A stretch of DNA of 64,000 bases from a candidate division WWE3 bacterium (GTDB taxonomy: Bacteria; Patescibacteriota; WWE3; UBA101185; UBA10185), in NCBI GenBank assembly GCA_016182565.1, contig JACPGI010000003.1, positions 5,280 to 69,279 on the forward strand, given 5' to 3'. This document shows, piece after piece, positions 17,529-55,055 of this stretch. Numbering within the stretch: position 1 is the first letter of the stretch; every line of letters starts with the position of its first letter. Both the position numbers and the translations under genes were made by a program. The notes under the pieces are model-generated. The model ran no database searches, was not told the origin of the DNA, and saw nothing but the letters and a program-made list of their open reading frames with translations.

Positions 17529-17724
17529 CTTCAGTTGCTCCTTTCGTTGGATTCACCTTCATCTTGTTAGATGAAAATTTGGTCGGATTATCTTCCTATT
17601 TTTTTGAATTGTAAATACACAAAACTTTCATGTTATTAACTATTGCTTATCAGTCCAATATTTGTTATAGGTTATTCAAGCTTTTTTTGTCCCATACGGT
17701 AAGAAACTAAAGGAGATGAGTCTC

Positions 17725-18462
17725 ATGACAAAAAAGATCAAAGGAAGGCGAATCAATTGGCTTTTGCTTTTTGGGGCTGCCGGTGCCGGAAAGGGCACAC
17801 AGGCAGCGAGGATTCGTGAAATTCTCGAAAAACATGGATTACGTGTGGCTTTGCTTGCTACTGGTGATCTGTTTCGTAATCCTCCTGGAACGCTGGATCG
17901 CGGTGTTGTATCACAAATCAGTGAGAACATGAAAAAAGGTGTGTTGGTAGACGATGCAGTTACCATGGTCATTGCTGGTGAGGCACTTAACGCCAAACTT
18001 GAGGAGGACCCTGACTGGGTGATATTGGATGGTTTGCCAAGAAATGTTTTTCAGCTTGCTGCGGTTTTGTTCGCCATGACCTCAATCGGACTGGCACATT
18101 TTTTCACATTTGAACTTGCAGTGGCCGACAGTCTTCTTATCCCACGTCTTCAAGGTCGAAAGACTTGTAAAAGTTGTGGTAAAGTCCATCCGGCCTCCAC
18201 TGATTTAGCAGGTGCATGTCCAAAATGTGGGAAGGTCACCTTGTTTATTCGCGATGACGATAGCAACCCAAAGTCAATCCGGAATCGCTTAGGTGACTAC
18301 AGGAAAACGATCTCAAGTGTTTTGGATGCGCTCAGAAAACTTATCTCAACACTTGAACTGAAAGATCGGTTCAGTGTGGAGACTGTTGATGGGTCGCTTC
18401 CGGAAGACTCTGTTACTGACCGCATTATCAAGCACCTTGATCTTCAAGACCAACCCGCTTAA
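17725..18462 (+). CDS. adk: Adenylate kinase with Cys4 zinc lid, GC-shifted
   Basis: GAAGAGKGTQA P-loop, LATGDLFR, ILDGLPR, the lid CKSCG...CPKCG, and RDDD. The second ATG at 17725 was chosen for its RBS spacing. Confidence 0.85.
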   Translation: MTKKIKGRRINWLLLFGAAGAGKGTQAARIREILEKHGLRVALLATGDLFRNPPGTLDRGVVSQISENMKKGVLVDDAVTMVIAGEALNAKLEEDPDWVILDGLPRNVFQLAAVLFAMTSIGLAHFFTFELAVADSLLIPRLQGRKTCKSCGKVHPASTDLAGACPKCGKVTLFIRDDDSNPKSIRNRLGDYRKTISSVLDALRKLISTLELKDRFSVETVDGSLPEDSVTDRIIKHLDLQDQPA

Positions 18463-25968: not shown

Positions 25969-27324
25969 CTATTTTAATTTGTTTCTTATACTACTTATCT
26001 GTTTTTTTATACTCTCCTCCGATTTTCCTATAAATAACACTGCCAAAATGTTACAAGCTAATAAATCTGGATTCGCAAGTATCATTCCGTAACCTTTTTG
26101 TTTTGTGTAAAGTTCTTTATCAAAAAGTTTATAAGCTTGTGCTGGCGTTAACTTTTTTGAGCCCTCAAGTTTAATGTCTTGAATGTTTACAAAATATTTT
26201 GTCGAGTAGTTTTTACCAAGAAGTGCTTTGCAAAATTCATGGGCGTGAGTGCCACCGGTACGTCTTAAATTTGCCTCTATCGCATAAAGTTTGTTTGTTT
26301 TTGACACTACAAGATCCATATCAAATACGCCTTTATACCCATATTCTGCAAGTTTTTTGCCTATTTTTTTTGCAGCAGCAAAAGCTATTTTGATGTGTTT
26401 ACTCTTGTCCACATTTTTGTTCATACCTACACCCATAAACGTTTTTTTGTCCTCGGCTATGATTTGTTCACACGCATACTCATTTATGACTTTTCCGTTT
26501 TCATCAATTCGCATCTCTACATTCGGAGATCCCCCCAGTTTTGTGGTATCGGTATCTACCTTTTCTTCTACCACAAGACATGCTGAATGCCACATTTCCC
26601 CATCTAAGTCTTTTCTAATTTGTTTGGAAAATGCCTCCTTGTTTTTTGGTAATTTACTTTGAGACATAAAGATAACCCCTATGCCCTGAACACCACGGTT
26701 ATATTTGATAACAAAGTTTTTCTTTTGTCCCATAAACCACCAAGCTGCCTCAATTGCTTCCTCTAAGTTTTCAACAATAAATCCTTCAGGAAGATGAATT
26801 GGAAGTTTTGGATCTTTTACCATTTCCCATAAGTGTCTAAAACCTCTTTTAGAGTGAAAGTAAGTTTCGATAAATTTTTTACCTTTTGGAAAAGTTTCAG
26901 GCAAGGTAAATTTAAGCTTTTTACTCTTTAGAAAATCAACTAGATCATAAAATTCATCTGTCTGGCGGTAAGGGATAATTTGTATATTTGGATTATTTTT
27001 TATTATTTCTATGAATTTTGTACTAAGTGTCTTATCTTTGATTAAATCTAGTGAAATTGTATTTCCTAATTTCTTTGGAAAAAGGTTTATAACATTTTTC
27101 CAACCTGCTAGTTTTTTTAGAGTTTCAAAGTGTTTAGAGTCTATTTCTATAGGTGTAATAATTACTTTATCATCGCCGCCGTATAAGATAGATCTGTTGT
27201 TATCTAGAGCATCATATTTGGTCCAGAATTCCATTTCATCTTTGGGAAGTTTTTGATGACCCTTGTAATAAGACTCTAAGATATTTCCAATATAGATTTG
27301 CTTTAACTTTATAGTTTTTGCCAT
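25969..27324 (-). CDS. ATP-grasp fold enzyme (carboxylate-amine ligase-like), function unknown
   Basis: C-terminal GVFDMDLVVSKTNKLYAIEANLRRTGGTH ATP-grasp motif with a pre-ATP-grasp N-domain. It is an orphan gene convergent with infB. Confidence 0.55.
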   Translation of the reverse strand: MAKTIKLKQIYIGNILESYYKGHQKLPKDEMEFWTKYDALDNNRSILYGGDDKVIITPIEIDSKHFETLKKLAGWKNVINLFPKKLGNTISLDLIKDKTLSTKFIEIIKNNPNIQIIPYRQTDEFYDLVDFLKSKKLKFTLPETFPKGKKFIETYFHSKRGFRHLWEMVKDPKLPIHLPEGFIVENLEEAIEAAWWFMGQKKNFVIKYNRGVQGIGVIFMSQSKLPKNKEAFSKQIRKDLDGEMWHSACLVVEEKVDTDTTKLGGSPNVEMRIDENGKVINEYACEQIIAEDKKTFMGVGMNKNVDKSKHIKIAFAAAKKIGKKLAEYGYKGVFDMDLVVSKTNKLYAIEANLRRTGGTHAHEFCKALLGKNYSTKYFVNIQDIKLEGSKKLTPAQAYKLFDKELYTKQKGYGMILANPDLLACNILAVLFIGKSEESIKKQISSIRNKLK

Positions 27325-40429: not shown

Positions 40430-41239
40430 TTGAACTATTATAAAAATATGAAAACTGTCGGACAGATTTTAAAGACTGCACGTGAGCAGAAAAAATTTAC
40501 GCTTGAGGATGTACATAAATTTATAAAAATACACCCCAAGTTTTTAATTGCCCTTGAGGAGGGTGAATATCAGATATTTTCAAATAAAATTCATGCCAAA
40601 GGATTTCTTAAGATTTATTCTGAATTTTTAGGACTTGATGTGCCCCAAGTGCTTGCCTTTTGGCGACGTGAGTACGAGGCAATGTTTGAAAAAAGGGAAA
40701 GTTTACTCCCCAAATTTAAAGTTAATCATTTACAAAAAGTTGGGGTGGTTTTAACTCCAAGTTTGGTTTTGATCACCCTTTCCGTTTTTCTTACACTTAG
40801 TTTTTTTAGTTACTTATTTTATCAATACCACACATATTCAGGTGCTCCAAAACTAGACATCTATAACCCTCAAAATAATGTAGTAATAAACTATGAAATA
40901 TTGGATGTGACAGGAAAAACTGATATTGATGCAAATCTTATGATAAATAATCAAAAAATTAATTTGGATAAAGATGGGGGTTTTGCTACTTCAATTAGAT
41001 TACAACCGGGTTTAAATACTCTTAGCTTTCTTTCTGTAAATAAACTTCAGAAGGAAACCGAAGAAATAAGAACAATAATTTATCGAAATCCTGAACAGGA
41101 AAATGTATCTTCTATACTTCCTGTGGTTGAGTCTACACAGTCTACAAGGGAAACCCCAGGGAAGTTTGAGCCTGATACTAAGCCAAGTATTAGAGAGGGA
41201 GGGGGTTTGGAGTTTGTAGAAGAATTTCAGTTACCTTAA
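40430..41239 (+). CDS. RodZ-like HTH (XRE-type) bitopic membrane protein
   Basis: N-terminal HTH_25-like domain (GQILKTAREQKKFTLEDVHK), a TM and a C-terminal domain. Confidence 0.55.
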   Translation: MNYYKNMKTVGQILKTAREQKKFTLEDVHKFIKIHPKFLIALEEGEYQIFSNKIHAKGFLKIYSEFLGLDVPQVLAFWRREYEAMFEKRESLLPKFKVNHLQKVGVVLTPSLVLITLSVFLTLSFFSYLFYQYHTYSGAPKLDIYNPQNNVVINYEILDVTGKTDIDANLMINNQKINLDKDGGFATSIRLQPGLNTLSFLSVNKLQKETEEIRTIIYRNPEQENVSSILPVVESTQSTRETPGKFEPDTKPSIREGGGLEFVEEFQLP

Positions 41240-41308
41240 GTAAGTCATAGATCTAGCTTTTAAGTACACGTTTGAGCTTATGATATAGCCCCAAAAATAT
41301 TTTTAGTA

Positions 41309-41336
41309 TTGACTTAATATATATATGAAATAACAT
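41309..41336 (+). promoter_or_regulatory. Promoter-like TTGACT-N16-TAACAT directly upstream of the giant surface-protein gene
   Basis: Same -35 hexamer as the other putative promoters. The ATG lies within about 7 nt of the -10, which suggests a short or absent leader. Confidence 0.35.
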
Positions 41337-41339
41337 AGA

Positions 41340-44300
41340 ATGTGTATGAAAACTTTGATTAAGGTTCTAACCCTACTTTTTTTGTTTCTTATTACTTTAA
41401 TGTCTAACACCAGATTTTCTTTTGCTGTTGATCTAGATGTTTATACTGAGCCGACTAGTTACGTCTATGATGCCACTGATAACGCCTCCCTTGTGATTGA
41501 AGATGTTTCGGGGGATGGGGCAGACGATATGCTGTATTTTTCAGGTGACAACAGTGGAACGATGTATGTGTACCTAAATGGTAACTTACCCCAAACCGGT
41601 GAAGTTCTTAGCACTGCGCTTACAGGATATAATGTTAGGTATACTAATTTGGGCACTAATTTGTACGGACAACATCGTATCGCCACTGGAGATATTGATA
41701 ATGATGGCTCTACTGATATTTTGGTTTCAACAGAATCCGCTCTTTACGGGTTTTTAGCAGATGATATTGCTGCATATCAGAATCAGACGCTACAGACGGT
41801 GAATGTTTCAACAACCCCCGCTGCCTACCTGTTTAAAATGTACAGAGCCGGTCTTCAAATTGGATATAGTCACGGCCAGGCTTTTTACTTGACTGATATT
41901 TCAGGGGATGGGGCAAATGACATTGTACTAAGCGACGACAATAATTTTTGGATTTATTATGTTAATAACAGCATCTTTGGTAGTGTGAGCCACGGTACTC
42001 AACTAAACCTTGCCACTTCATCAAACTACAATGTTTTGATGACTTCAGGATTTAGTGGGATTATGGAAGATGGTGATGGGTTTACTGTGGGAGATTTTAC
42101 AGGCGATGGTAAATCTGATGTCGTGGCTCTTATTAGTAATCTATCTTACGGAACAATAAATGTTGTACTTGGATCTCAGTTGAGTGCAATTGCGGGGACA
42201 GGAAATTCCTTAGACCTCACTAGTGCTGCAAACTCATCAATAAGAATTAAAGGCACTAGTACACTTGCTTTCTACGAGAATTACACTGGTTTGGGGATAT
42301 ACGATGTGACTGGGGACGGTGATCCAGATTTGGAAGTTGCCTTAGGTGGGACTAGTGGATCAGGTCCAGGTTATTTGTATGTGTTTTCAAATGAATTAGC
42401 TCAAACTTGGGAGGGGGTCACTGGAACAGACGTTTTGCTTAGTACAAATACCGTTTATTCCTACTCGATTTCTGGTGAAGGGTTTAGTGGTGGCAATTAT
42501 GGTTTCGCTGCAAATAATGGGTTTCATGTGGCTGATATAAATGAGAACGGTATAAACGACCTTGTGATCGGAGATGATTACTACAGCACCGGTTGTACTA
42601 ATTGTGGTGTTGCCTATGTTATATTGGATAACTTGTTAGCTGATTTTGCTGTATCATCTGCGCCTAGTAATACATTTTCCTTAGGAAATTCTGCATATTT
42701 TACTCTTAAGATAAAAGGAGCAGCCAATAGTGCACGGGCCACAAGCACTAGTAGCCAGGGCAATGGTGGTATTTTCTTAGGCGATGTGAATAGTGATGGT
42801 TATAACGACCTAGTTGTTACATATAGTGATGGTTGGAGCTTATATTTGAGTGATAGGTTTGTAGATTTAGGAATAACTACAGGAACTTCTTGGACAACTG
42901 CTACCAATGTAGATCGTAGGTATACGGGCTCTTGGTGTGGTGCTTGTCGGCTTTCAGTGGGTGATTTAAATGACAACGGGGCCAACGACCTAGCAATTAG
43001 TAACTCGGGGCGTGATGAGAGCTATTTTTTCCTTGGAGGTTCAACAATAAATTCCCTAGGGGCAAGTTTAGGGGCTGAGGTGCAGTCTAATGGTGATGAT
43101 GCAACTAGCGACCCGCAAGGGGGCACAAAAAGCGTCATTTTAACAAAATCCAGTATTCCAGTCGCCTTAGTTACAACATCCTTTACTGCTATTGATGGTT
43201 TAGATTGGTCTGTTATCACTGCTGATGTAGATTCGGATGCCGGTAAAAGCGTGGCAACAAATATTGAAAGTGCTGATGGAACAGGAGCTTCTCATAGCCT
43301 GTACGTACCAAAGCTTGCGGGGGCTCTAGGTGTGTATGTTTGTCCTGATGCCACAAATCTTGCAGGAGTAACTGATTCATGTACAAACGGCTATGAACTT
43401 TCCGAAGGCGAAAGCGGTCTTACCGAGGTAACCATTGACTCAGTAGATTACTGGAGAATTTCAGGACTAACTGGAACAGGTGCTCAAAATGTATTGGACA
43501 CAGATCCTCCAGTAAATGGTAATTTCGTGATAAATGGTGGTGCTGCTTATACTACTTCAACCAGTGTTACTTTAACAATCTCAGCTACTGATGAGCTATC
43601 TGATGTTTCTCAGATGGAGATCTCCGAAGACTCTAGTTTTACTGGTGCCTCGTGGGAAGCTTATTCGACTAGTAAGAGTTTTACCTTATCATCAACCTCT
43701 GGTACCAAAACCGTCTACATAAAATACAAAGACAGTAATGATAACGAGTCATCATCCTATTCAGATAGTATTATTTTAGACAGTAACTCTCCTGGGAAAC
43801 TTCGCATAGGTCTAAAGGAAGATAAACTATTTACCGTAGGCGAAGCTCACTTTGAGCTTAAGGATAGGAAATTCAAGCTATATGTAGATACATTTGATAG
43901 TACAACAGATGTAGACCAAATTAAGGTATCAGAACATAGTGATTTTGAAGAGGATGACTATGAAGACTATGATGGTGATCTTAACATCAAGTTGTCAAAC
44001 GGTGCTGAAAAGAAGTATCTCTACTTTAGATTAAAAGATAGTGCAGGAAACACCTCGAAAGTTTATAAACAACTCGTCAAATACAATCCAAACTATACTA
44101 AAAACTTAATCCAAGAAGACGATGATGACATGGAAGAAAACCCAATTTTAAATGGTATGACAGAAGATACAGATGTAGTTCTTGAAAAGATCGGAACTAT
44201 TCAATATTCTACAGATCACAAAAACTATTTCTATACAGAAAATTTCTTGACCCTTTTAGGTAAATCCAGTGGAATTGTATCAATATCAGTAGACGGAGAT

Positions 44301-44639
44301 TTCAGTGATTCTACATACTCTAATGATACTAATGTCTTCTCACTTTCATTAAACCTTACAGACGGTAAACACGATATTGTAGTAGGTAATACAAGCTTTT
44401 CTATAACAATAGACCCATCAGGTAACTCCTTTCCTACTTCATTGAAAACTGTGCTTGGCATACAAACGTCTTCTGAGCAGATATCCGGGGACGGTGATGA
44501 AAAAAGAGTTGAAACCCCAGATAATAAAGAGTTGATCCAAGCTGATGGAGCTTCACCGGAAGTGACTGATGGTACACAACAAACAGGCGGAACATTTTTT
44601 GGGAATACATGGCAGTGGGTCAAATCTTTGTTTGATTAG
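41340..44639 (+). CDS. Large secreted/surface protein (1099 aa) with about 7 FG-GAP (integrin-alpha-like, Ca-binding DxDxDG) repeats and a long Ser/Thr-rich C-terminal region
   Basis: Signal peptide, then repeats TGDIDNDGSTDIL, DISGDGANDIV, GDFTGDGKSDVV, YDVTGDGDPDLE, ADINENGINDLV, GDVNSDGYNDLV and GDLNDNGANDLA. Confidence 0.7.
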   Translation: MCMKTLIKVLTLLFLFLITLMSNTRFSFAVDLDVYTEPTSYVYDATDNASLVIEDVSGDGADDMLYFSGDNSGTMYVYLNGNLPQTGEVLSTALTGYNVRYTNLGTNLYGQHRIATGDIDNDGSTDILVSTESALYGFLADDIAAYQNQTLQTVNVSTTPAAYLFKMYRAGLQIGYSHGQAFYLTDISGDGANDIVLSDDNNFWIYYVNNSIFGSVSHGTQLNLATSSNYNVLMTSGFSGIMEDGDGFTVGDFTGDGKSDVVALISNLSYGTINVVLGSQLSAIAGTGNSLDLTSAANSSIRIKGTSTLAFYENYTGLGIYDVTGDGDPDLEVALGGTSGSGPGYLYVFSNELAQTWEGVTGTDVLLSTNTVYSYSISGEGFSGGNYGFAANNGFHVADINENGINDLVIGDDYYSTGCTNCGVAYVILDNLLADFAVSSAPSNTFSLGNSAYFTLKIKGAANSARATSTSSQGNGGIFLGDVNSDGYNDLVVTYSDGWSLYLSDRFVDLGITTGTSWTTATNVDRRYTGSWCGACRLSVGDLNDNGANDLAISNSGRDESYFFLGGSTINSLGASLGAEVQSNGDDATSDPQGGTKSVILTKSSIPVALVTTSFTAIDGLDWSVITADVDSDAGKSVATNIESADGTGASHSLYVPKLAGALGVYVCPDATNLAGVTDSCTNGYELSEGESGLTEVTIDSVDYWRISGLTGTGAQNVLDTDPPVNGNFVINGGAAYTTSTSVTLTISATDELSDVSQMEISEDSSFTGASWEAYSTSKSFTLSSTSGTKTVYIKYKDSNDNESSSYSDSIILDSNSPGKLRIGLKEDKLFTVGEAHFELKDRKFKLYVDTFDSTTDVDQIKVSEHSDFEEDDYEDYDGDLNIKLSNGAEKKYLYFRLKDSAGNTSKVYKQLVKYNPNYTKNLIQEDDDDMEENPILNGMTEDTDVVLEKIGTIQYSTDHKNYFYTENFLTLLGKSSGIVSISVDGDFSDSTYSNDTNVFSLSLNLTDGKHDIVVGNTSFSITIDPSGNSFPTSLKTVLGIQTSSEQISGDGDEKRVETPDNKELIQADGASPEVTDGTQQTGGTFFGNTWQWVKSLFD

Positions 44640-44699
44640 ATCTAACTGTGATTTTCACATATTTTATTTTTTACATTCATCCTGAAGATCTAAATTACA

Positions 44700-45020
44700 T
44701 TGTGGGACTTGCTCAAACTTCTTACTCATGAAATACTTAATGCACAAAGGAATCTGCCCAATATGGATATACAAGCAATTTTAGTTCTAATACTTTCAAT
44801 TCTCACAATAAATTTAGTAGTAGTAGGTGTTTATGTAATTTTAGTTTTAAGGGAACTGCGCGAAACTATTAAGAAAGCTAATGAGGTCATGGATACGGTG
44901 ACTTCTGTAAGTTCTTTAGTATCAAATCCGTTTGGAACAATAAGTAGTTTTATTACTGCTTTAATTGATGGTTATAAAGCAGTAAAGGAAGTTAGGACTA
45001 TAAGAAGTCTAAAAGATTAA
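44700..45020 (+). CDS. Small bitopic membrane protein, DUF948-like (TM + coiled coil)
   Basis: 106 aa with an N-terminal TM and a helical C-terminus. It is first in a four-gene overlapping operon. Confidence 0.35.
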   Translation: MWDLLKLLTHEILNAQRNLPNMDIQAILVLILSILTINLVVVGVYVILVLRELRETIKKANEVMDTVTSVSSLVSNPFGTISSFITALIDGYKAVKEVRTIRSLKD

Positions 45021-45023
45021 GTT

Positions 45024-45464
45024 ATGGAATGTAAGCATTGTGGTAAAAATCATACAGATGCCGGAAGTTTTGTCCACGGAGCTATGTGGGGAGCTTTAGC
45101 CGGGGCTATTCTTGGCATGCTTTATGCTCCTGAAAAAGGTGAGGATAACAGGGCAAAATTAAAGGAAGCATTTGACGGTGCAGAGGCCAAGGGAAAAGAA
45201 TTAGGTGGAAAAGTACGTGATGAATTAAAAGATCTTACCGGAGATATAAAAAAGACCACAAAGGAGATAGCGGAGGCAGCTAAGCCTTTTATATCTGAAC
45301 TTGAAAAAAGTATTAAACCGGTTTTAGATAAAGCTAGATCCTCAAGCCAAGATGTACAACTGCAGGTCATGGAGAAAATAGAACAGCTTGTTGAAGATGC
45401 TTCTTCAGGATATGATGACGACAGGAATATGAAGAAGTTTTTCAAGGGCACCAAAAGAAAATGA
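45024..45464 (+). CDS. YtxH-like stress-associated membrane protein
   Basis: GAMWGALAGAILGMLYAPEKGEDNRAKLKE matches the YtxH N-terminal signature and is followed by a charged coiled coil. Confidence 0.45.
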   Translation: MECKHCGKNHTDAGSFVHGAMWGALAGAILGMLYAPEKGEDNRAKLKEAFDGAEAKGKELGGKVRDELKDLTGDIKKTTKEIAEAAKPFISELEKSIKPVLDKARSSSQDVQLQVMEKIEQLVEDASSGYDDDRNMKKFFKGTKRK

Positions 45465-46708
45465 ACTCGTTTAAAATAATCCTCGCAATAAAAGACTCTT
45501 TAAAAATTGCCTACAAGAATAAAATTTTGTGGGTTTTTGCTCTAATGCTTGCGGGTACTTCTGCTGGGTCAAATTTTAATACCGCAAGAAATCTTGATCC
45601 AAACAAGGACAATACAAAAACCTCCGATAAAATCATATCCATGACCGACCGAGGCAGAAAAAATGAAAGCAAGCTTTTAGCAGTAGGCGAAGGTATAACT
45701 TCAGAAGAAAATAAGTTACTTAACGATTTAGATTTGGTAATTCCAGAAAAAGACTTTGCCCAAGACGAATTTGAGCCTACTGTAAATGCAGAAAACAGTG
45801 GTGAAACACTTGATGTGACTTCTAAAAATTTTATATTTATGCAGGCGCTACAAATACTCTACCTAACCCCACCTCAAGAATATCTTCAAATATTTAAAAC
45901 AAACTTAATCACTTTAGGTTTTGTCGCAGTTGTTGGTATTACAGTTGCAATTGTGGTCGGGTTAATAATTCATGCTTGGGGTTATTTAGCTATTTTAGTT
46001 GGTTCAAAAGATGCAGTAGATGGGCAGGACATTAATTTAAAAAAACTCTCGGATAAAGGAATGACAAATTATCTAAGAATGGTAAGGTTTAAAATTCTTA
46101 TGTTTTTGACTTTTCTTATTACAATATTTGTATTTATGATAATAGGTGTTGCTCCGTTTATATTTTTTGAAAAAAATATAATTACGACTCTAATCTACAT
46201 ACCACTTGCTGCTATTTATATAACAATATTTATATCCCTTATCTATATCACAAAAATTGGCCCATATTTTATAACTTTTGAGGATTCTAAGGCCAGAGAG
46301 GCATTTTATTTAGGATGGGACTTTTTTAAGAAAAACTTTAAGCTTGCTATTTTGACAGATTTGGCAAGTTTTGTACTTGTTGGCTTAATAACATGTGTGG
46401 TGATTTTGTTTCTTGGCGTTTTGTTTTTTGGAGGTGTTTTTATCTACCCAAGCGTTGTTTCCCTTTTACAAGAGCATTTTGCGCTAATACTTCCTGTTTC
46501 ACTATTTTTGAGTATTTTGCTTATCAGTGTAGTGTTCTCATTCATGGCGTTTACGGGCTTTATACTTACATTTAGATATATATTATGGACAAAGTTATTT
46601 TTTGCATTAAAAGATAAGGACAATGATCAATACCGAGATCACTTCCCATTAAAAACTGATTTAGATTTAACAAATAGTAACAAAATGGAGGTGACAAGTG
46701 TTGCCTAA
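45461..46708 (+). CDS. Polytopic membrane protein (415 aa; signal/anchor, hydrophilic loop, about 6 TM), function unknown
   Basis: Hydropathy by eye. ATGA overlap with the upstream gene. Confidence 0.45.
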   Translation: MNSFKIILAIKDSLKIAYKNKILWVFALMLAGTSAGSNFNTARNLDPNKDNTKTSDKIISMTDRGRKNESKLLAVGEGITSEENKLLNDLDLVIPEKDFAQDEFEPTVNAENSGETLDVTSKNFIFMQALQILYLTPPQEYLQIFKTNLITLGFVAVVGITVAIVVGLIIHAWGYLAILVGSKDAVDGQDINLKKLSDKGMTNYLRMVRFKILMFLTFLITIFVFMIIGVAPFIFFEKNIITTLIYIPLAAIYITIFISLIYITKIGPYFITFEDSKAREAFYLGWDFFKKNFKLAILTDLASFVLVGLITCVVILFLGVLFFGGVFIYPSVVSLLQEHFALILPVSLFLSILLISVVFSFMAFTGFILTFRYILWTKLFFALKDKDNDQYRDHFPLKTDLDLTNSNKMEVTSVA

Positions 46709-47282
46709 TTCTAATTCGAGTATGAACGCGGGTTTTTTGATAAGAGCCTTAGCTTATTTATTAGATAAGCTTTTAGGTCTAATTTTGCTTCTTTCTATAA
46801 TTTTAATATATTCATATTTTGTAACTCTTGAGGACGGTATGGAGTTTATAAAAATATTTGGAAATATCACAACAATAGTAATCTCACTACTGCTTTTGGC
46901 AACACTTATAAACCTTATCTATTACACCTACTTTTTATCAAGGTTCGGCGGGACACTGGGTAAACTACTTCTTGGAATACAAGTTTTTGACAAGGAAACC
47001 GGCAGATTTCTTGATACAAAAAAAGCGTTTTTTCGAAGTTTTGCGGGATACAGCTTTTCAGGTCAGTTTATGGGATTAGGATTTCTTGCAATAAATAAAA
47101 AGAGGAATAATCTTGCTTGGCATGATGAATTATTTAACACTGAGGTAAAAGCTGTGGGGTCGGTTTGGCCTGGAGTTATACTAACCCTTCTCTTTTTAGC
47201 CATTAACGCATTCGTTGTTATACCGGTTATTTTTTCTCTAGTATCCAAAACGTTTTCTGCATTTGGTACCCCATCTTTATGA
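46698..47282 (+). CDS. RDD-family membrane protein
   Basis: RFGGTLGKLLLGIQVFDKETGRFLD core with flanking TMs. Confidence 0.6.
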   Translation: MLPNSNSSMNAGFLIRALAYLLDKLLGLILLLSIILIYSYFVTLEDGMEFIKIFGNITTIVISLLLLATLINLIYYTYFLSRFGGTLGKLLLGIQVFDKETGRFLDTKKAFFRSFAGYSFSGQFMGLGFLAINKKRNNLAWHDELFNTEVKAVGSVWPGVILTLLFLAINAFVVIPVIFSLVSKTFSAFGTPSL

Positions 47283-47373
47283 CTTTTAAAATGCTAAGTT
47301 TTATATGTCTTAGTACTCCCAGTCACACTAAATAGTATTTTTTAGCTTAGATAATTGATGCTACAATTCATGC

Positions 47374-47793
47374 ATGAGTGATTTACTGTCCCAACAAAAT
47401 TCACAGAACGATCAGAATTTATCCGGAGTTCAAAATACTTCACCTACCCCATTTATCCCATCGACCCAATCTTATAGTCTTGGTGCCGAAAACCCACAGA
47501 TTGTTGAGACACCAACTCCAGTTGAGTTAAATCCGGAAAGTAAAGAACTTTTGCGAAAACCAGAAATACCAGTGCCAGCTGCACTTAAAGAAGAATCCAA
47601 TCAAGCAGAAAAAAATAACCCAGTTTTTACAATTGTTCCAGACCTAGCAGTAAAAGTAGCTATTCCAAAAGTTGAACCAAAAAAAGCAACCCTACATCAT
47701 ATTGAAACTCCCGGGAATGACCTTACAAAAAAAGCAGACGAAGAAGAAGAGGATTTTATAAAGCATGTTGAGGAAATCCACACTATTGTATGA
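47374..47793 (+). CDS. Hypothetical Pro/Gln-rich low-complexity protein, translationally coupled (ATGA) to the downstream ATPase
   Basis: The ORF has no TM. Its stop overlaps the ATPase start. Confidence 0.4.
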   Translation: MSDLLSQQNSQNDQNLSGVQNTSPTPFIPSTQSYSLGAENPQIVETPTPVELNPESKELLRKPEIPVPAALKEESNQAEKNNPVFTIVPDLAVKVAIPKVEPKKATLHHIETPGNDLTKKADEEEEDFIKHVEEIHTIV

Positions 47794-50195
47794 GTAGCCT
47801 AATGGACACACTTTACACAGGATTTTGGATTGTTTTTTATATTGTGTTTCTCATCACTTTTTTTTGGGTTATTTTTCTTGCAGTTTCAAGAAGATTTAGA
47901 AACAAAAGAGAACATGAAGAAAGATACAGCCTTACTTTCATGCAAATAAAACTACCGCGTGAGAATGAGGTTGAGATAAAAGCTGCTGAGCAGATGTTTT
48001 CTGGACTCATTGGTATTAAAAAACCGTTTTGGGGAGCTCTATTTACAGGGCAGCATAGGGTTTCATTTGAGATAGTGTCTAAGGCTGAAGGAATAGGCTT
48101 TTATGTTGTAACGCCGGATTCACTTGCCGGTCTTGTTGAAAAGCAAATAAATGGAGCATACCCGGATGCTGAAATTGATATTGTTGATCCAAGCGAGGTC
48201 TGGGATCGTGGGGCGTACACGTCAGTCATGGAACTACGTCTTGCAGGGCCTTCTTATTACCCTATTAAAGTTTATGAAAATATGGGTAGTGATACCATGA
48301 GTGGCATCACTTCTGTCATGAGTAAGCTTGAGGCAGATGAGGCTCTTGCAATCCAGCTTGTAATAAGCCCATCAGGAGAGGCTTGGAGAAATCATGGTTA
48401 TAGATTTATAGGAAATGTTAAAGCCGCTCAAGCAAATCCCGAAAAGTCTTCTAAGGTCGACGCTACTTTTATCGAGGGGGTTGAAAAAGAAGTTGCTAAA
48501 CCTGGTTTTGATGTTGCAATAAGAGTAATCTCCTTAGCTAAAGATAAAATTACCGCCGACTCTCATTTACAAAATGTCCACTCGGCCTTCGAACAATTTA
48601 CAAATCCAAAATACAATAAATTTAAACAAGTTAGCTTCATGAGTTCTCAAAGAATTGTTGACGACTTCATTTTTAGAAGGCTAGATGCCCTGGAAGTTTC
48701 AATTCCGGCTTTTGACATCCCGCTTTATAGAAATACTTCCCTTTTAAATATTGAAGAATTAGCAACAGTGTTTCATTTCCCAAATAAAAATGTCCAGACC
48801 CCAAAGATTATGTGGCTGCAGTCAAGAAAAAGCGCAGCCCCATCAAATGCACCAAAGGAAGGTATGTACCTCGGGAAAAATATATTTAGAGGTGTGGAGA
48901 CTAAAATCCACTTAAAACCGGATGATAGAAGGAGACATACTTATATTATTGGCCAGACCGGTACAGGAAAGTCACAACTTTTGATGTATATGGCAGTGCA
49001 AGACATTGTTGCAGGTCACGGAGTATGTGTTATTGATCCACACGGAACTGATATAGATGATATTTTGAAAAAGATTCCACCGGAAAGAATGGACGATGTT
49101 ATTTTGTTTGATGTGTCGGATACTACAAGGCCTCTTGGTTTAAATATTTTAGAGGCGGAAGATGATGATCAAAGAAATATGATCATAAATTCGTTTATAG
49201 GGCTTTTATATAAACTTTATGATCCAAACCATTCAGGTATTATCGGCCCACAGTTAGAGCGCGCTGTTCGAAACATAATGCTTACAGCAATGGTTGACCC
49301 TGAAAGCACCATGATTGATGTATTACGGCTTGTAATCGACGGTGAGTATATCAAAAAGTTTCTGCCAAAAATAAAAGATCCGCTTGTGAAAAGGTATTGG
49401 ACAGACGAAATGGCAAAAACTTCTGATTTTCATAAAAGCGAAAAAGTAGGCTATTTTGTTTCGAAGTTTGACCGTTTTGTTACCGAAAAAGTAATGCGTA
49501 ATATCATAGGGCAGCCAAAATCCGCTCTAAATTTTCCTAAAATTATGGCAGAAAAGAAGATACTTCTTGTTGATTTATCAAAAGGTAAGATCGGGGAAGA
49601 AAATTCAAATTTCTTAGGTCTTATTTTAGTTCCAAGAATATTATCAGCCGCTATGGCAAGACATACTTTAATAGGCAAAGAAGATTTTCCGGACTTTTAT
49701 CTATATGTCGATGAGTTTCAAAATTTTGCAACTCCGGACTTTGCGACTATTTTATCGGAAGCTCGTAAGTACAAGTTAAACTTAATTGTTGCCAACCAAT
49801 TTATAGCTCAGCTTACAGATGACATTAAAAATGCAGTATTTGGCAACGTTGGTACTACTATGGCATTTAGAGTAGGCGCGGATGATGCAGAGTATCTTGA
49901 AACTCAGTTTGCACCGTTTACTAAGGCTGATCTTATAAATAATACTGTCGGTAATTACTACATGAAGCTTCTTGTGAATGGCCAGCCAACCCCACCATTT
50001 TCTGTAAATATAAATTGGGAGGAAATACAGGCCGTAAAAAAATATCCAGGTGTTGACGAGAGGCTTAGAGAAATGTCTAGGATGAAATACGGCGTACCTG
50101 TAGAAGAGGTTGATAAATATATAAATCTTCGTGCCGGCTTTGGTGATGAGTTTGAAACCAAAGATCCAAGAGATATTATAAAAGAGTTGTTTTAA
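47790..50195 (+). CDS. VirB4/VirD4-superfamily (TraG/TraD-like type IV secretion/conjugation) P-loop ATPase, N-terminal TM anchor
   Basis: N-terminal TM, an approximately 350-aa N-domain, Walker A GQTGTGKS, Walker B LYVDEFQNFA and the conserved ARKYKLNLIVANQFIAQL motif typical of T4SS VirB4/coupling-protein ATPases. It is 801 aa. Confidence 0.6.
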   Translation: MSSLMDTLYTGFWIVFYIVFLITFFWVIFLAVSRRFRNKREHEERYSLTFMQIKLPRENEVEIKAAEQMFSGLIGIKKPFWGALFTGQHRVSFEIVSKAEGIGFYVVTPDSLAGLVEKQINGAYPDAEIDIVDPSEVWDRGAYTSVMELRLAGPSYYPIKVYENMGSDTMSGITSVMSKLEADEALAIQLVISPSGEAWRNHGYRFIGNVKAAQANPEKSSKVDATFIEGVEKEVAKPGFDVAIRVISLAKDKITADSHLQNVHSAFEQFTNPKYNKFKQVSFMSSQRIVDDFIFRRLDALEVSIPAFDIPLYRNTSLLNIEELATVFHFPNKNVQTPKIMWLQSRKSAAPSNAPKEGMYLGKNIFRGVETKIHLKPDDRRRHTYIIGQTGTGKSQLLMYMAVQDIVAGHGVCVIDPHGTDIDDILKKIPPERMDDVILFDVSDTTRPLGLNILEAEDDDQRNMIINSFIGLLYKLYDPNHSGIIGPQLERAVRNIMLTAMVDPESTMIDVLRLVIDGEYIKKFLPKIKDPLVKRYWTDEMAKTSDFHKSEKVGYFVSKFDRFVTEKVMRNIIGQPKSALNFPKIMAEKKILLVDLSKGKIGEENSNFLGLILVPRILSAAMARHTLIGKEDFPDFYLYVDEFQNFATPDFATILSEARKYKLNLIVANQFIAQLTDDIKNAVFGNVGTTMAFRVGADDAEYLETQFAPFTKADLINNTVGNYYMKLLVNGQPTPPFSVNINWEEIQAVKKYPGVDERLREMSRMKYGVPVEEVDKYINLRAGFGDEFETKDPRDIIKELF

Positions 50196-52238: not shown

Positions 52239-53462
52239 ATGTTTCAACTGCCATTTAATTTCAAACAGCAAAAAAAACCTTCAAAATTTTTAACCATTGA
52301 TATAGGTTCCAATGAAGTTAAAGTGATAGCTTTTAATGTTGTTACACAGGATGGCCATCTTACTCCCAAAGCTTCGGTTCTTGGTATTGCAAAGAAGGAA
52401 ATCTTGCCCGAGACAACAAGATCGGGCTCAATCACAGACTCAAACGATGTAATTCAAGCCTTGAAAACTGCTATTACCCAAGCTTCACCCGAGGACGAAA
52501 CCATTAAAGATGCAGTTTTTGGTGTTAGCGGAATTTTGGGAACTGGATTTATGATTACAGTTAAGGTGGGGCGCAAAAGCACATCCCAGATCTCTAAAAA
52601 AGAACTCCAAAATAATTTTGAAAAGATTCATGAGGAAGCTTACGATATAGCTCAAGGGATCTTTAGGGATATGACCGGCCTTGAAGACCTCGACCTTAAG
52701 ATGATTACTTCTTCTGTAGTTTATGCAAAGTTGGATGGCCATCTTATGGACGATTTGGAAGGAAAGACTGGTAGAAAACTTGAGATTGCGGTTTATACTG
52801 CGTTTACCCCAACATACCATTTTAATACAATTCACGATATCGCAAGTAAATTAGGTTTAAACCTTATTGCGATTGCTCCTACCACATATTCTCTTGCAAA
52901 AGCTCTGTCGTACTCAAAAGGTGCCGACTATGATGCAGTGCTAATTGATGTTGGTGGGGACATAACAGATGTAGCTGTAGTCTTTGGGGGAGGTATTGTT
53001 GCAAGTAGGAGTATTGAGATAGGTGGCAACCATTTCACACGTGCTATAGAAAAAGGGATGCTATTACCACCACGAGAAGCTGAACTTCGCAAGATTTCTT
53101 ATTCATTTGAGAGACTAAATGAGTCCGATGAGATGCTTGTCCAAGGTCACATTGATAATTTGCTAGATATTTGGCTCCACGGCCTTGATGTTGTGTTTTC
53201 CGACTTTACCGGAGTTAAGATGTTTTCTTCCAATGTATATGTTGCGGGTGGTGGGATAATACTTCCTGATCTTTTTGAGGTTTTAAGTAAAGAGCCTTGG
53301 GCAAAATCTGTACCATTTAAATCTCCCCCAGAGTTTAGTAAACTGTCAATTGACGATTTAAAGCTTGTCGAAGATATGAGCGGAAATTCCTATTCTTTGG
53401 AGTATATTATCCCGGCTGCCCTATCAATTGTTTATCTTGAAGCGAAAGGTTTAATAGATTAA
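52239..53462 (+). CDS. Actin-like ATPase, FtsA-like (or PilM-like)
   Basis: IDIGSNEVKV phosphate-1, and LIDVGGDITDVAVVFGGG...SIEIGGNHFT phosphate-2/adenosine motifs. Size 407 aa is closer to FtsA. Confidence 0.55.
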   Translation: MFQLPFNFKQQKKPSKFLTIDIGSNEVKVIAFNVVTQDGHLTPKASVLGIAKKEILPETTRSGSITDSNDVIQALKTAITQASPEDETIKDAVFGVSGILGTGFMITVKVGRKSTSQISKKELQNNFEKIHEEAYDIAQGIFRDMTGLEDLDLKMITSSVVYAKLDGHLMDDLEGKTGRKLEIAVYTAFTPTYHFNTIHDIASKLGLNLIAIAPTTYSLAKALSYSKGADYDAVLIDVGGDITDVAVVFGGGIVASRSIEIGGNHFTRAIEKGMLLPPREAELRKISYSFERLNESDEMLVQGHIDNLLDIWLHGLDVVFSDFTGVKMFSSNVYVAGGGIILPDLFEVLSKEPWAKSVPFKSPPEFSKLSIDDLKLVEDMSGNSYSLEYIIPAALSIVYLEAKGLID

Positions 53463-55055
53463 ATGGAAAAACTTGAATTTTTAATACATGACGATGTAAT
53501 TGCAATAATAGATAAGATCAGAAATTTTTCGGGTTCTAATATAGAACTTTTTTTTCCAGATGGCTCCGTAGTTTTTGATAATGGATTAAACTTGCGTCTT
53601 ATAAAAAAAGAATGTGACAAACTAAATAAAACTGTTTTATTTTCTACCAATGATCCTGAAGGTAAATACCTTGTTTCTTTAGTCGATGATGTCACAAGGG
53701 AAGTTTCTGGAGATAGCAATTCCGACTTTGTTTCAAGAGAGGTTTCTTTGGATGAAGTAACAGGTATAACAACTAAAAACTCTATTAAATCCTCAAAATT
53801 TACTATGTCGACTGTGTTACCAAACCTTTCTCGTATACGAGGTATAAAAACTCCACTAATCAAGTTTCCAAAACTTGGGTTAAACTTTGGATTAATAGTG
53901 ATGGGGATTTTATTTGCTGGGTTAATTGCTGGTTTTGCGTATTGGTATTTTTGGACTATTCCTAAGGCAGATGTAAATATAGTTTTAAAATCAGAACCTC
54001 TTGTAAAAAGTCTTCAGATAACAGTTGAAAACGGTGGTAAAAATAGTGCGTCCCTAAGGACTTTAGAGGGGCGTATCTTTTCCTCTACACTCACCGAGAC
54101 TGTAAAAACAGATGCGACAGGTTCAAAACTTATTGGTGAAAAAGCAGGGGGCAAAATAAAAGTTATCAATAGAACAACAACCGCTAAAACTTTTAAAAAA
54201 GGCGAAAAACTGCATTATAAAGAAGATGATGATTTATTGTTTAGTATCGATGATGATTTGACGGTACCCGGAGCACAGTTACAGGATCCACTTGATGTAA
54301 ATTCTGCCTTGGTACCAGGAAATGCTGAGGTTTCTACAACTGCCACAGAGTTTGGCAAGAGCTACAACATATCAAAAGGCAAAACGTTTGAGTTTGAAAA
54401 ATATAGCACCACTGACTACATTGCCGAAGTCACGACAAGTTTTTCTGGAGGCTCAAGTGAGCAAGTTAAGGTAGTAACTCAGGTGGACTTAGACAAACTT
54501 GCAACAGATATTGCACTTGTTTTTAAGGAAAAAGGTCCCCAAGCAGTAAAATCTGGTGTACAGCAAGGTTGGGTTTTAATAAACGGTTCAGAGACAAGCA
54601 CGAGTATAAGTAAAAAATATAATAAAAAAGTTGATGACGTTTCTAATGAAGTCGAACTGGTCGAGACAGTAAACTACCAGGGGCTTGGATACAGTAGTAA
54701 TGGTTTAAATTCCCTTCTTAACGATCTTTTGGCCGAGTTTATTACAAAAGACTATGAACTTTCTAAGGAAAGTAGAGACATCAAGGCCGAAGTTTTAGGT
54801 AATACTGATAAAACAGTTTTGACTACGTCAAAAGCAGATCTTCAAGTGACCGTGAAGGCTTTCATTGTTCCAGTTTTAAATGCCGATAATATAAAAAATA
54901 GTCTTCTAGGAGTTTCTTTTACGGAGGCCGAGCGACTTTTAAATGAAATAAAAAATATTAAGACATATGGTATAAACATGACACCAAAAGTCTCACTATT
55001 AAAACGAATTCCAAAAAATATCGCTAACGTAAATTTAAACATTACCTTGGAATAA
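53463..55055 (+). CDS. Hypothetical bitopic membrane protein (130-aa cytoplasmic domain, TM, about 370-aa Thr/Lys-rich extracytoplasmic domain), coupled to the FtsA-like gene
   Basis: TAA-ATG adjacency with the upstream gene and a TM LIVMGILFAGLIAGFAYWYFW. Confidence 0.45.
   Translation: MEKLEFLIHDDVIAIIDKIRNFSGSNIELFFPDGSVVFDNGLNLRLIKKECDKLNKTVLFSTNDPEGKYLVSLVDDVTREVSGDSNSDFVSREVSLDEVTGITTKNSIKSSKFTMSTVLPNLSRIRGIKTPLIKFPKLGLNFGLIVMGILFAGLIAGFAYWYFWTIPKADVNIVLKSEPLVKSLQITVENGGKNSASLRTLEGRIFSSTLTETVKTDATGSKLIGEKAGGKIKVINRTTTAKTFKKGEKLHYKEDDDLLFSIDDDLTVPGAQLQDPLDVNSALVPGNAEVSTTATEFGKSYNISKGKTFEFEKYSTTDYIAEVTTSFSGGSSEQVKVVTQVDLDKLATDIALVFKEKGPQAVKSGVQQGWVLINGSETSTSISKKYNKKVDDVSNEVELVETVNYQGLGYSSNGLNSLLNDLLAEFITKDYELSKESRDIKAEVLGNTDKTVLTTSKADLQVTVKAFIVPVLNADNIKNSLLGVSFTEAERLLNEIKNIKTYGINMTPKVSLLKRIPKNIANVNLNITLE

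Follow-up and report, generated by a model that had tools for sequence, protein, structure and literature searches.

A probably Sec-exported FG-GAP/VCBS propeller protein of a candidate division WWE3 bacterium and its apparently incidental position beside a TraD/VirD4-like ATPase gene

The window analyzed here (64,000 nucleotides of a candidate division WWE3 bacterium) contains a large gene for a protein with FG-GAP repeats, followed by membrane-protein genes and a T4SS-like ATPase gene. This raises the question whether the protein serves in host attachment and, together with the genes behind it, makes up a single surface/secretion locus (41.3-50.2 kb), as a first-pass annotation had proposed. 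The 1099-aa protein described there is real. It is encoded by a single ORF whose stop codon lies within the coordinates given in Table 1, and the product matches NCBI MBI2414330.1 ('VCBS repeat-containing protein [candidate division WWE3 bacterium]') at 100% identity. The NCBI entry has 1097 aa and starts at the second Met (41346), the longer reading at the ATG 41340. Few of 41 genes had a synonymous-usage distance as low as that of this gene (0.053). Its GC3 was 0.31, the raised GC stemming from codon position 2; with this native codon usage a signature of horizontal transfer was ruled out. The gene is genuine but of a rather common sort, and its large product is probably exported.

Table 1. 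Features of the FG-GAP gene, its product and the adjoining spacers (positions in the window)
Feature	Coordinates	Strand	Basis or remark
Promoter-like TTGACT-16 nt-TAACAT	41309..41336	+	Consensus scan, 9/12 matches
Whole ORF	41340..44639	+	ORF list and identity to MBI2414330.1
Putative Sec-type signal peptide, aa 1-29 (MCMKTLIK / VLTLLFLFLITLM / SNTRFSFA-VD), no lipobox	41340..41426	+	Hydropathy scan and sequence reading, heuristic
Eight FG-GAP/VCBS-type blade units, aa 30-575	41427..43064	+	Pfam, motif spacing, alignment, AF2, Foldseek
Loops, units 1-4	41502-41528, 41691-41717, 41895-41921, 42093-42119	+	Motif scan
Loops, units 5-8	42303-42329, 42534-42560, 42783-42809, 42963-42989	+	Motif scan
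Segment aa 576-717, C-x12-C pair, motif YWRISGLTGTG	43065..43490	+	No family match
Ig-like module 1, aa 718-818, Big_7/Big_13-type beta-sandwich	43491..43793	+	phmmer, AF2, Foldseek
Ig-like module 2, aa 819-914, divergent copy with acidic insertion (EHSDFEEDDYEDYDGD)	43794..44081	+	HHalign, phmmer, BLASTP
Orphan C-terminal region, aa 915-1099	44082..44636	+	Acidic linker, middle part, low-complexity tail, aromatic end TFFGNTWQWVKSLFD
Extended -10-like box (TGAAATACT) ahead of the DUF948 operon	44729..44737	+	Leader of 25 nt up to ATG 44763

The repeats of the N-terminal half could be assigned to the FG-GAP/VCBS family. The full protein passed the Pfam cut-offs of both FG-GAP_3 (PF13517; 55.3 bits, cut-off 26.9) and FG-GAP (PF01839; 43.5 bits, cut-off 22.1), while the N-terminal 577 aa alone scored 61.7 and 48.5 bits, respectively, either model aligning to 6 stretches. 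A D-x-[DNST]-x-[DN]-G-x-x-D loop was found in every one of the eight units (starting at aa 55, 118, 186, 252, 322, 399, 482 and 542; spacing 60-83 aa), and its D, G and D positions were invariant across the aligned units. The DxDxDG loops noted earlier are thus present, but they number eight (aa 55 to 542) instead of about seven. VCBS-type propellers vary in blade number, carry a DxDxDG cation motif and typically recognise carbohydrates (PMC9218822); judging by their sequence, the loops would bind Ca2+.

The AF2 model of this part was all-beta, with eight sets of ~4 strands (pTM 0.75, mean pLDDT 63.9). It was built from a shallow alignment, since the word-indexed homologue search with the propeller alone gave only weak matches (best E 2.6e-3). 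According to the model, the ring may close with eight blades. Comparison of the model with the PDB by Foldseek yielded 76 matches (E ≤ 1e-3), with UmbA4, integrin alpha5/alphaIIb, Bap1, a PL11 lyase and the PVL lectin at the top (probability 1.0), so that profiles, model and fold comparison all agree with the FG-GAP beta-propeller first proposed.

The label 'integrin-alpha-like' fits the propeller repeats and no other part of the protein. FG-GAP repeats with Ca-binding loops are shared with integrin alpha, which accounted for many Foldseek matches, and a weak direct sequence match to the alphaIIb blades was obtained (E ~0.02, aa 477-560). However, integrin alpha has seven blades with loops in some only, whereas all eight units of the WWE3 protein possess them, and the thigh/calf domains, the C-terminal TM, the cytoplasmic tail and the beta-subunit partner are absent. 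The leg-domain families were not matched and the sole hydrophobic segment is the N-terminal signal; the protein is therefore not an integrin alpha. It belongs with the bacterial FG-GAP/VCBS proteins, with which it shares the matches to the Pfam models, a DxDxDG loop per unit, a secretion signal and the fusion to Ig-like modules, but it is very divergent and its C-terminal architecture is unique. Large exported FG-GAP proteins are known in other CPR genomes (PMC4736985).

Three further propellers are relevant for the possible ligand. The top Foldseek match was Streptomyces UmbA4 (PDB 9oee), and fungal PVL (PDB 2bwm) was in the top 10; both have degenerate repeat blades with conserved Ca-type loops, but identities were 14-16% and TM-scores ≤0.45. 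PVL, a propeller of 7 blades, is a stand-alone lectin, unlike the modular FG-GAP protein. UmbA4, with its 6 blades, belongs to a toxin particle, together with trypsin-like and bulb-lectin domains; its propeller binds teichuronic acid, a cell-wall glycopolymer of the target bacteria (PMC13274773), and such glycopolymer recognition on another bacterium is the function proposed below for the FG-GAP protein. The Vibrio cholerae biofilm adhesin Bap1/RbmC (PDB 6mlt) is likewise secreted, its eight-unit propeller belongs to the same superfamily, and Bap1 was among the top Foldseek matches. The WWE3 protein differs from Bap1 in lacking the beta-prism insertion and in its other accessory domains (TM-score 0.29, identity 11%), and it comes from a CPR bacterium and not from a Gram-negative biofilm former.

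The C-terminal half had been described as long and Ser/Thr-rich. Its S+T content per 100 aa (15-33%, versus 17-24% in the N-terminal half) is not distinctive, and the half is instead made up of two Ig-like modules, two unmatched segments and acidic stretches. At E ≤ 1e-3, exhaustive phmmer searching retrieved 10,439 representative proteins, almost all via Ig-like module 1, whose relatives occur in up to 50 copies per protein and are labelled Big_7, Big_13 or DUF7743 in Pfam. The direct Big_7 match of the module (20.4 bits) stayed below the cut-off of 24.1; it would thus belong to Big_7 (PF17957)/Big_13 (PF19077) by transitive homology and not by Pfam cut-off. Other matches were to an OmpL47-type model (E=0.0023) and to phrog_10898 (E=5.7e-16), the only hit that the whole protein produced in the defence-system and phage libraries. 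In the AF2 model the module has 7 strands (pLDDT ~90) and resembles FN3, PKD and BIg domains in Foldseek. It is up to 60% identical to modules of giant Big_7/Big_13-type surface proteins; these have up to 50 such modules, whereas the FG-GAP protein has two plus a propeller head. Ig-like module 2 matched the module profile in HHalign (probability 95.7%, E 9.5e-9) and was covered by ~50 two-module matches; BLASTP matches to the proteins P0003 and P0006 span aa 725-910. AF2 confidence was low there.

The remaining segments, aa 576-717 and 915-1099, account for ~30% of the protein and are without relatives. Neither matched Pfam or found a homologue in the word-indexed search, and the two joined gave nothing at E ≤ 10. 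The first segment was reached only by weak extensions of matches to neighbouring modules, and none of the 1,870 domain matches extended beyond ~aa 920 except one weak match. Both were considered as degenerate Ig modules and rejected, as their HHalign probabilities against the Ig-module profile (0.2% for aa 576-717, ≤1.8% for aa 915-1099) were at the level of the negative control. In the AF2 model of the C-terminal half, Ig-like module 1 alone was confident and the remainder, both segments included, had pLDDT <50; Foldseek was accordingly informative for that module only. The relative-less segments could hold the real activity of the protein.

In a hydropathy scan the N-terminus displayed a hydrophobic core of 13 residues behind a K-containing n-region, followed by the junction SFA-VD. 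Judged by eye, the protein is probably exported by Sec and cleaved around Ala29; all of the nearest propeller relatives have signal-like N-termini as well, and the description of the protein as secreted thus agrees with this heuristic reading. The same scan revealed no further TM-like segment in the 1099 aa, and no C-terminal LPXTG, TM, SLH or PG-binding anchor was found. The sole LPxTG is LPQTG at aa 83-87, which cannot be a sorting signal given its position inside blade 1, so that the reported lack of LPXTG is correct for the C-terminus. A sortase-anchor layout (LPXTG, hydrophobic stretch and positive tail) was also missing, the C-terminus ending in TFFGNTWQWVKSLFD without a TM-like stretch. 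Since all of these anchors are lacking, the protein may be released and not displayed. The suggestion of an S-layer-like factor found no support: no SLH or other anchoring family was matched, the gene is not conserved in relatives, and orthologues were absent from the protein collections. S-layer proteins being diverse, this falls short of a strict exclusion.

The best non-self relative was 26% identical, over the propeller only, and no orthologue was detected among 5.8 billion clusters. At the same site the gene was absent from all sampled relatives; it is native in codon usage, yet lineage-specific. The nearest propeller relative, P0004, with apparently ~seven units versus eight here, contains Glucodextran_B and PG_binding_1 C-terminal to its propeller and is encoded beside mreB. 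These domains would fit a wall-attached, outward-facing propeller in P0004. Downstream of the FG-GAP gene are those for DUF948, YtxH, a 415-aa multi-TM protein (TM415), RDD, p139 and the TraD/VirD4-like ATPase. In WWE3-type relatives (those with an ATPase ~60% identical and a contig reaching upstream of it), the array is (RNase J-FtsK-RodZ or DnaK)-DUF948-YtxH-p139-ATPase, and none of the FG-GAP, TM415 and RDD genes was found in it upstream of the ATPase. From this comparison, the FG-GAP gene appears to have been inserted, between rodZ and the DUF948 operon, into a housekeeping array that is conserved in other respects. The gene is flanked on both sides by a palindromic octamer, TAGATCTA (at 41248 and 44637), which was considered as an insertion scar. 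It was taken as chance: there were 3 occurrences in the window against 1.24 expected, at least 3 in 10/100 shuffles, and it was not at the empty sites of relatives. A variable surface-protein hotspot 5' of DUF948 was ruled out too, the gene there being dnaK in L004, L009 and L010.

On balance, and with moderate confidence, we regard the protein as a Sec-exported modular propeller binding protein (lectin or adhesin) of this WWE3 lineage that is not part of the ATPase locus. The N-terminal 545 residues left after cleavage would form an eight-bladed FG-GAP/VCBS propeller as the ligand-binding head, the two Ig-like (Big_7/Big_13-type) modules behind the segment aa 576-717 would serve as spacer, and the 185-residue orphan C-terminal region may keep the protein attached to the cell envelope. 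Going by the propellers of PVL lectin, UmbA4 and Bap1/RbmC, the head would most likely bind a carbohydrate polymer or, with lower probability, a protein, present on another cell or on a matrix. In this picture the ORF, the domain architecture, the number of repeats in the sequence and the absence of orthologues and of synteny are shown, while export, Ca2+ binding, closure of an eight-bladed ring, the class of ligand and retention on the cell are inferred. Of the proposed host-attachment factor, the extracytoplasmic binding or adhesin role survives, being fitted by the propeller and the Sec-type signal, but the link to the neighbouring genes does not.

Alternatively, the propeller could bind the cell's own wall, S-layer or exopolysaccharide and organise or cross-link its own envelope. 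Bap1, one of the top structural matches, has an eight-bladed propeller (PMC8295476) that binds its own VPS (PMC10102183), and P0004 with its peptidoglycan-binding domains is encoded beside mreB as the window gene is beside rodZ. However, an absence from sampled relatives at the site and from 5.8 billion clusters is unexpected for a core envelope component, and no SLH or PG-binding domain was found in the protein; we consider this role unlikely. A catalytic propeller is more doubtful again. The protein would then be a secreted carbohydrate degrader, such as a PL11-like rhamnogalacturonan lyase with accessory Ig-like modules. The PL11 lyase 4cag was Foldseek rank 6, the VCBS-linked hub that contains this family also includes the RGL11 propellers (PMC9218822), and FN3/Ig-like spacers are typical of secreted glycosidases, but no lyase or glycosidase family of Pfam or NCBIfam was matched and the fold match to 4cag was weak (TM 0.25, 12% identity), which does not place the protein in PL11.

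That the FG-GAP protein, the membrane proteins and the ATPase are one surface/secretion system, with the ATPase exporting or assembling the propeller protein or acting alongside it at host contact, is now very improbable and largely refuted by synteny. The gene order is as first described: the genes are adjacent on the same strand, with the FG-GAP gene upstream of the membrane-protein genes and the T4SS-like ATPase gene, and the stretch from the FG-GAP stop to the DUF948 gene showed no terminator-like site. The ATPase also scores above cut-off with the Pfam models TraG-D_C, DUF87 and TrwB_AAD_bind. However, it is the only TraD/VirD4-like ATPase present, it scored far under every NCBIfam T4SS cut-off, no VirB4, VirB6 or other T4SS component was detected near it, and the rest of the window consists of housekeeping genes. 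In the relatives DUF948-YtxH-p139-ATPase follow rodZ/ftsK or dnaK, and an FG-GAP-type ORF within ±10 kb was present in 0/25 related loci. The large ORFs directly 3' of the ATPase in L005, L008 and L022 encode neither a signal nor a TM segment and have no counterpart in the window. Nor would a dedicated exporter be needed, given the Sec-type signal.

The transcriptional signals point in the same direction. The arrangement ahead of DUF948 in the window, with a TGCTATACT box, a leader of ~23-32 nt and then ctgcctATG, recurs between rodZ and DUF948 in L007, L008 and L022, where the FG-GAP gene is absent. This conserved geometry suggests that the DUF948 operon is transcribed separately from the FG-GAP gene, and the p139-ATPase pair is likewise preceded by its own promoter-like box. 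The FG-GAP gene had itself been assigned a promoter, and the box TTGACT-16-TAACAT does exist, inside the 100-nt spacer between rodZ and the FG-GAP gene. However, promoter-like matches in the region (34 versus 31.7 in shuffles) are not enriched, and the TAACAT box ends 9 nt ahead of the annotated ATG 41346 and 3 nt ahead of ATG 41340, versus the 6-7 nt before the start at which TAnnnT ends in 14/42 genes of the window, the typical leaderless geometry of this genome. No Shine-Dalgarno motif was present upstream of the FG-GAP start. The box is a plausible, unproven promoter of the gene. Since the FG-GAP gene appears inserted into an otherwise conserved array, its position beside the ATPase gene would be incidental, and the proposed secretion locus, with separate promoter-like boxes and without T4SS parts, is not upheld.

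Least probable of all is a polymorphic-toxin-like protein in which propeller and Ig modules target a C-terminal variable effector or toxin domain of 185 residues: VCBS-type propellers do occur in toxins (PMC9218822), one is the targeting lectin of the umbrella toxin system (PMC13274773) and the C-terminal region lacks relatives, but the next gene is the conserved DUF948 and not a lineage-specific immunity candidate, toxin families were unmatched, and the C-terminal region is partly low-complexity and acidic.

The class of protein found here, a secreted FG-GAP/VCBS propeller with Ig-like modules, is well known and already annotated as such in NCBI. The more useful outcome is negative, namely that the link to the ATPase seems to be a positional accident; the region 41.3-50.2 kb should therefore not be treated as a secretion locus. 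To our knowledge, neither the host nor the means of attachment is known for the great majority of CPR/Patescibacteria, WWE3 included. Exported binding proteins restricted to one lineage are natural candidates for recognising a host, and the FG-GAP protein could be used as bait for a ligand or host. Going further, the eight-bladed propeller with a Ca-type loop in every unit might be a host- or partner-recognition lectin that this WWE3 lineage acquired or evolved recently enough to leave sister genomes without an orthologue, with an undescribed CPR envelope-retention domain among the relative-less segments; we offer this as a speculation of low probability. If true, it would offer a way to find out on which host an uncultivated WWE3 bacterium depends.

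The FG-GAP gene forms one long ORF encoding 1099 aa, and the NCBI record MBI2414330.1, named 'VCBS repeat-containing protein [candidate division WWE3 bacterium]', is 100% identical to its product. This record is located on a 166,874-bp contig and begins at the second Met (41346), giving 1097 aa. Large exported FG-GAP proteins were reported earlier from CPR genomes (PMC4736985). No full-length orthologue was detected in the collections searched; the best non-self match of the propeller showed 26% identity, and the whole C-terminal half was matched by the protein itself only. The FG-GAP protein is a divergent member of a well-known kind of protein and is already annotated as such in NCBI. Its gene displayed native codon usage (distance 0.053, GC3 0.31), with a raised GC stemming from codon position 2, and no codon-usage signature of recent transfer was seen. 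Elsewhere in the window, a 248-aa ORF had the highest GC (0.465; GC3 0.41) and was among the two most deviant in synonymous codon usage (0.122). The coordinates of all features are collected in the table.

Features of the FG-GAP protein, its gene neighborhood and related loci
Feature	Position	Remark
FG-GAP gene	41340..44639 (+)	
Ca-type loops, D-x-[DNST]-x-[DN]-G-x-x-D	aa 55, 118, 186, 252, 322, 399, 482, 542	spacing 60-83 aa
Segment without domain assignment	aa 576-717	
Ig-like module 1	aa 718-818	Big_7/Big_13 relatives; AF2 sandwich
Ig-like module 2	aa 819-914	divergent, acidic insertion; HHalign probability 95.7%, E 9.5e-9
Orphan segment without domain assignment	aa 915-1099	
RodZ-like gene	40430-41239	HTH_25 + TM segment; Glucodextran_B, E 1.5e-10
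Promoter-like TTGACT-16-TAACAT	41309-41336	
DUF948 operon box	44729-44737	
DUF948-YtxH-p139-ATPase	44700-45464, 47374-50195; L002-L010, L022 (related loci)	conserved WWE3-type set after rodZ/ftsK or dnaK
TM415 + RDD genes	45461-47282	415 aa, multi-TM, without family match; RDD family, 194 aa
TAnnnT box genes (examples)	p139 47359-47367; 15359; 33140; 10149; 25969-27324(-); 374-2440(-); 50256; 52239; 56730; 60476	
Octamer TAGATCTA	41248-41255; 44637-44644	just past rodZ stop; overlapping FG-GAP stop
248-aa ORF	17716-18462	
451-aa ORF	25969-27324 (-)	no Pfam family at E<=1e-3
530-aa ORF	53463-55055 (+)	no Pfam family at E<=1e-3; after FtsA/PilM-like gene 52239-53462
Large post-ATPase ORFs in related loci	L005:12428-15973, L008:12420-14582, L022:9072-11429	
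P0004, nearest propeller relative	L026:8001-10751	directly after mreB

The FG-GAP repeats proposed in the first-pass annotation were borne out by Pfam, since the whole protein exceeded the cut-offs of both FG-GAP_3 (55.3 vs. 26.9 bits) and FG-GAP (43.5 vs. 22.1 bits). The N-terminal 577 aa alone scored 61.7 and 48.5 bits, respectively, with six matched stretches per model. The proposed count of about seven Ca-binding repeats did not stand, as eight loops were read from the sequence, and the D, G and D positions of the loop were invariant in the alignment of all eight units. An AF2 model of aa 29-580, whose shallow input alignment comprised 24 weak relatives, was all-beta (pTM 0.75, mean pLDDT 63.9) and displayed eight sets of ~4 strands, each with a Ca-type loop flanked by two strands. 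Foldseek searches of the PDB with this model returned 76 matches at E<=1e-3, the top ones including the UmbA4 lectin (9oee), integrin alpha5/alphaIIb and V. cholerae Bap1 (6mlt). Bap1 is a precedent for an eight-bladed propeller in the same superfamily (PMC8295476), and the FG-GAP protein likewise has eight units by sequence. The number of propeller blades varies even inside lineages (PMC9218822).

The C-terminal half had been described as long and Ser/Thr-rich, which was not upheld by its composition (15-33% S+T per 100 aa vs. 17-24% N-terminally); acidic residues make up 25% of aa 801-900. A total of 10,439 representative proteins were matched at E<=1e-3, nearly all via Ig-like module 1, and these relatives carry up to 50 copies per protein with up to 60% identity, assigned by Pfam to Big_7, Big_13 or DUF7743. 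The direct Big_7 match of the FG-GAP protein was slightly under the cut-off (20.4 vs. 24.1 bits). AF2 modeled module 1 as a seven-strand sandwich (pLDDT ~90), and the closest solved folds were FN3, PKD and BIg. The two unassigned segments had neither a Pfam nor a word-indexed match and were essentially uncovered by 1,870 domain matches in 149 giant proteins. Their HHalign comparison with the Ig-module profile was at negative-control level, and their AF2 pLDDT was <50.

The N-terminus (MCMKTLIK-VLTLLFLFLITLM-SNTRFSFA|VD) has, as judged by eye, the tripartite n/h/c layout of a Sec signal peptide, and all of the nearest propeller relatives have a signal-like start. The signal region contains no lipobox, and no further TM-like segment was found beyond it. 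A C-terminal LPXTG is absent, as had been noted before, the single LPQTG (aa 83-87) lying inside blade 1, and family profile searches gave no match to SLH, PG-binding or other anchoring families.

We propose that the protein would be exported by the Sec pathway with cleavage of its signal, and that it would present an eight-bladed propeller head, presumably stabilized by Ca2+ bound at the observed loop motifs. The Ig-like modules form the spacer; the orphan C-terminal region may, speculatively, retain the protein. The head probably recognizes a carbohydrate polymer of a matrix or of another cell, by analogy with VCBS-type propellers, which are typically carbohydrate-recognising (PMC9218822), with the UmbA4 propeller binding teichuronic acid of target bacteria (PMC13274773) and with the Bap1/RbmC propeller binding VPS (PMC10102183). 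Binding to the cell's own envelope or matrix is an unlikely alternative that still deserves some weight. In P0004, the nearest propeller relative, Glucodextran_B and PG_binding_1 are present and the gene adjoins mreB, showing that wall attachment is possible for this group of propellers. Glucodextran_B is also found in the RodZ-like protein encoded in the window, which could be a coincidence or hint at a link with the cell-wall elongation machinery. The PL11 rhamnogalacturonan lyase (4cag) and the fungal lectin PVL (2bwm) were also leading in the Foldseek search; that the propeller is enzymatic is improbable, and a carbohydrate-binding head remains our preferred reading.

Using the downstream TraD/VirD4-like ATPase as anchor, 25 related loci were obtained from WWE3 and Dojkabacteria MAGs, and gene order was read in WWE3-type loci with an ATPase ~60% identical and a contig extending upstream. 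The genes were arranged either as PNPase ... RNase J-FtsK-(RodZ)-DUF948-YtxH-(p139)-ATPase, tightly packed, or as DnaK-DUF948-YtxH-p139-ATPase. The FG-GAP, TM415 and RDD genes were absent from those loci, and within +-10 kb neither an ORF with at least three Ca-loop motifs nor any tblastn match with the FG-GAP protein, in whole or in part, was detected (0/25 loci each). Missing from the sites of its relatives, the FG-GAP gene is therefore a lineage-specific insertion between rodZ and the DUF948 operon. TM415 and RDD are a second, separate insertion in the array; neither gene occurs in any of the 25 related loci. Their reading frames overlap with one another and with ytxH, which suggests translational coupling. 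Otherwise the window consists of core-chromosome genes (UvrD, D-Ala-D-Ala carboxypeptidase, GAPDH, MurJ, LepA, DnaK, PNPase, RNase J, FtsK, RodZ-like protein, AlaRS, RuvX, MiaA and YceG). From the origin of the related loci, the organism is placed in the CPR/Patescibacteria.

The palindromic octamer bordering the FG-GAP gene was considered as an insertion mark and rejected. With three copies against 1.24 expected in the window, and at least three in 10/100 shuffles, it is statistically weak; it is missing from the empty sites of relatives, and it is probably due to chance. Directly after the ATPase, L005, L008 and L022 encode a large ORF (720-1181 aa) without Pfam match, signal or TM segment, those of L008 and L022 being 29% identical; AlaRS holds that place in the window. 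The loci from MAGs titled 'uncultured Candidatus Saccharibacteria bacterium' (L001, L003, L005, L008 and L022) displayed WWE3-type synteny and ATPases ~60% identical, and it is probable that the title is a generic one or an error.

In 14 of the 42 window genes, a TAnnnT box, in many cases with a TGn extension, ended exactly 6-7 nt before the start codon, all 14 lacking a Shine-Dalgarno sequence; other spacings occurred in ~1-2 genes each. The extension was often TGC (TGCTAnAAT). This arrangement suggests that leaderless mRNAs are widespread in this WWE3 genome. The p139 gene, which overlaps that of the ATPase, has the canonical box TGCTACAAT, followed after 6 nt by ATG. Ahead of the DUF948 operon, a TGAAATACT box precedes a 25-nt leader, a geometry kept in the rodZ-DUF948 spacers of relatives. 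An own promoter for the FG-GAP gene is plausible from its TTGACT-16-TAACAT, ending 9 nt before the annotated ATG; such promoter-like matches showed no enrichment vs. shuffles. Read-through from this gene is possible because no terminator-like site was found 3' of it. Most likely there are three units, namely the FG-GAP gene, DUF948-YtxH-TM415-RDD and p139-ATPase.

The 801-aa ATPase is ~60% identical in WWE3-type MAGs and ~40% in Dojkabacteria. It passes Pfam TraG-D_C, DUF87 and TrwB_AAD_bind, and was far under every cut-off of the curated NCBIfam T4SS models. Its PDB sequence matches, TrwB and DotL, covered the P-loop region only (E ~0.004), while phrog_5156 was matched strongly (E 1.7e-80) and PADLOC mad8 at E 7.8e-17. 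No other T4SS component is present near the ATPase, which is a conserved lone HerA/FtsK/TraD-superfamily protein and is not evidence of a T4SS. A surface/secretion locus uniting the FG-GAP gene, the membrane-protein operon and this ATPase had been suggested; in none of the 25 related loci was the FG-GAP gene beside the ATPase, and its membership of such a locus is very improbable. That the FG-GAP protein is a polymorphic toxin is the least credible reading. It is of modest value as a candidate for host recognition, owing to its restriction to one lineage and its orphan C-terminal parts.
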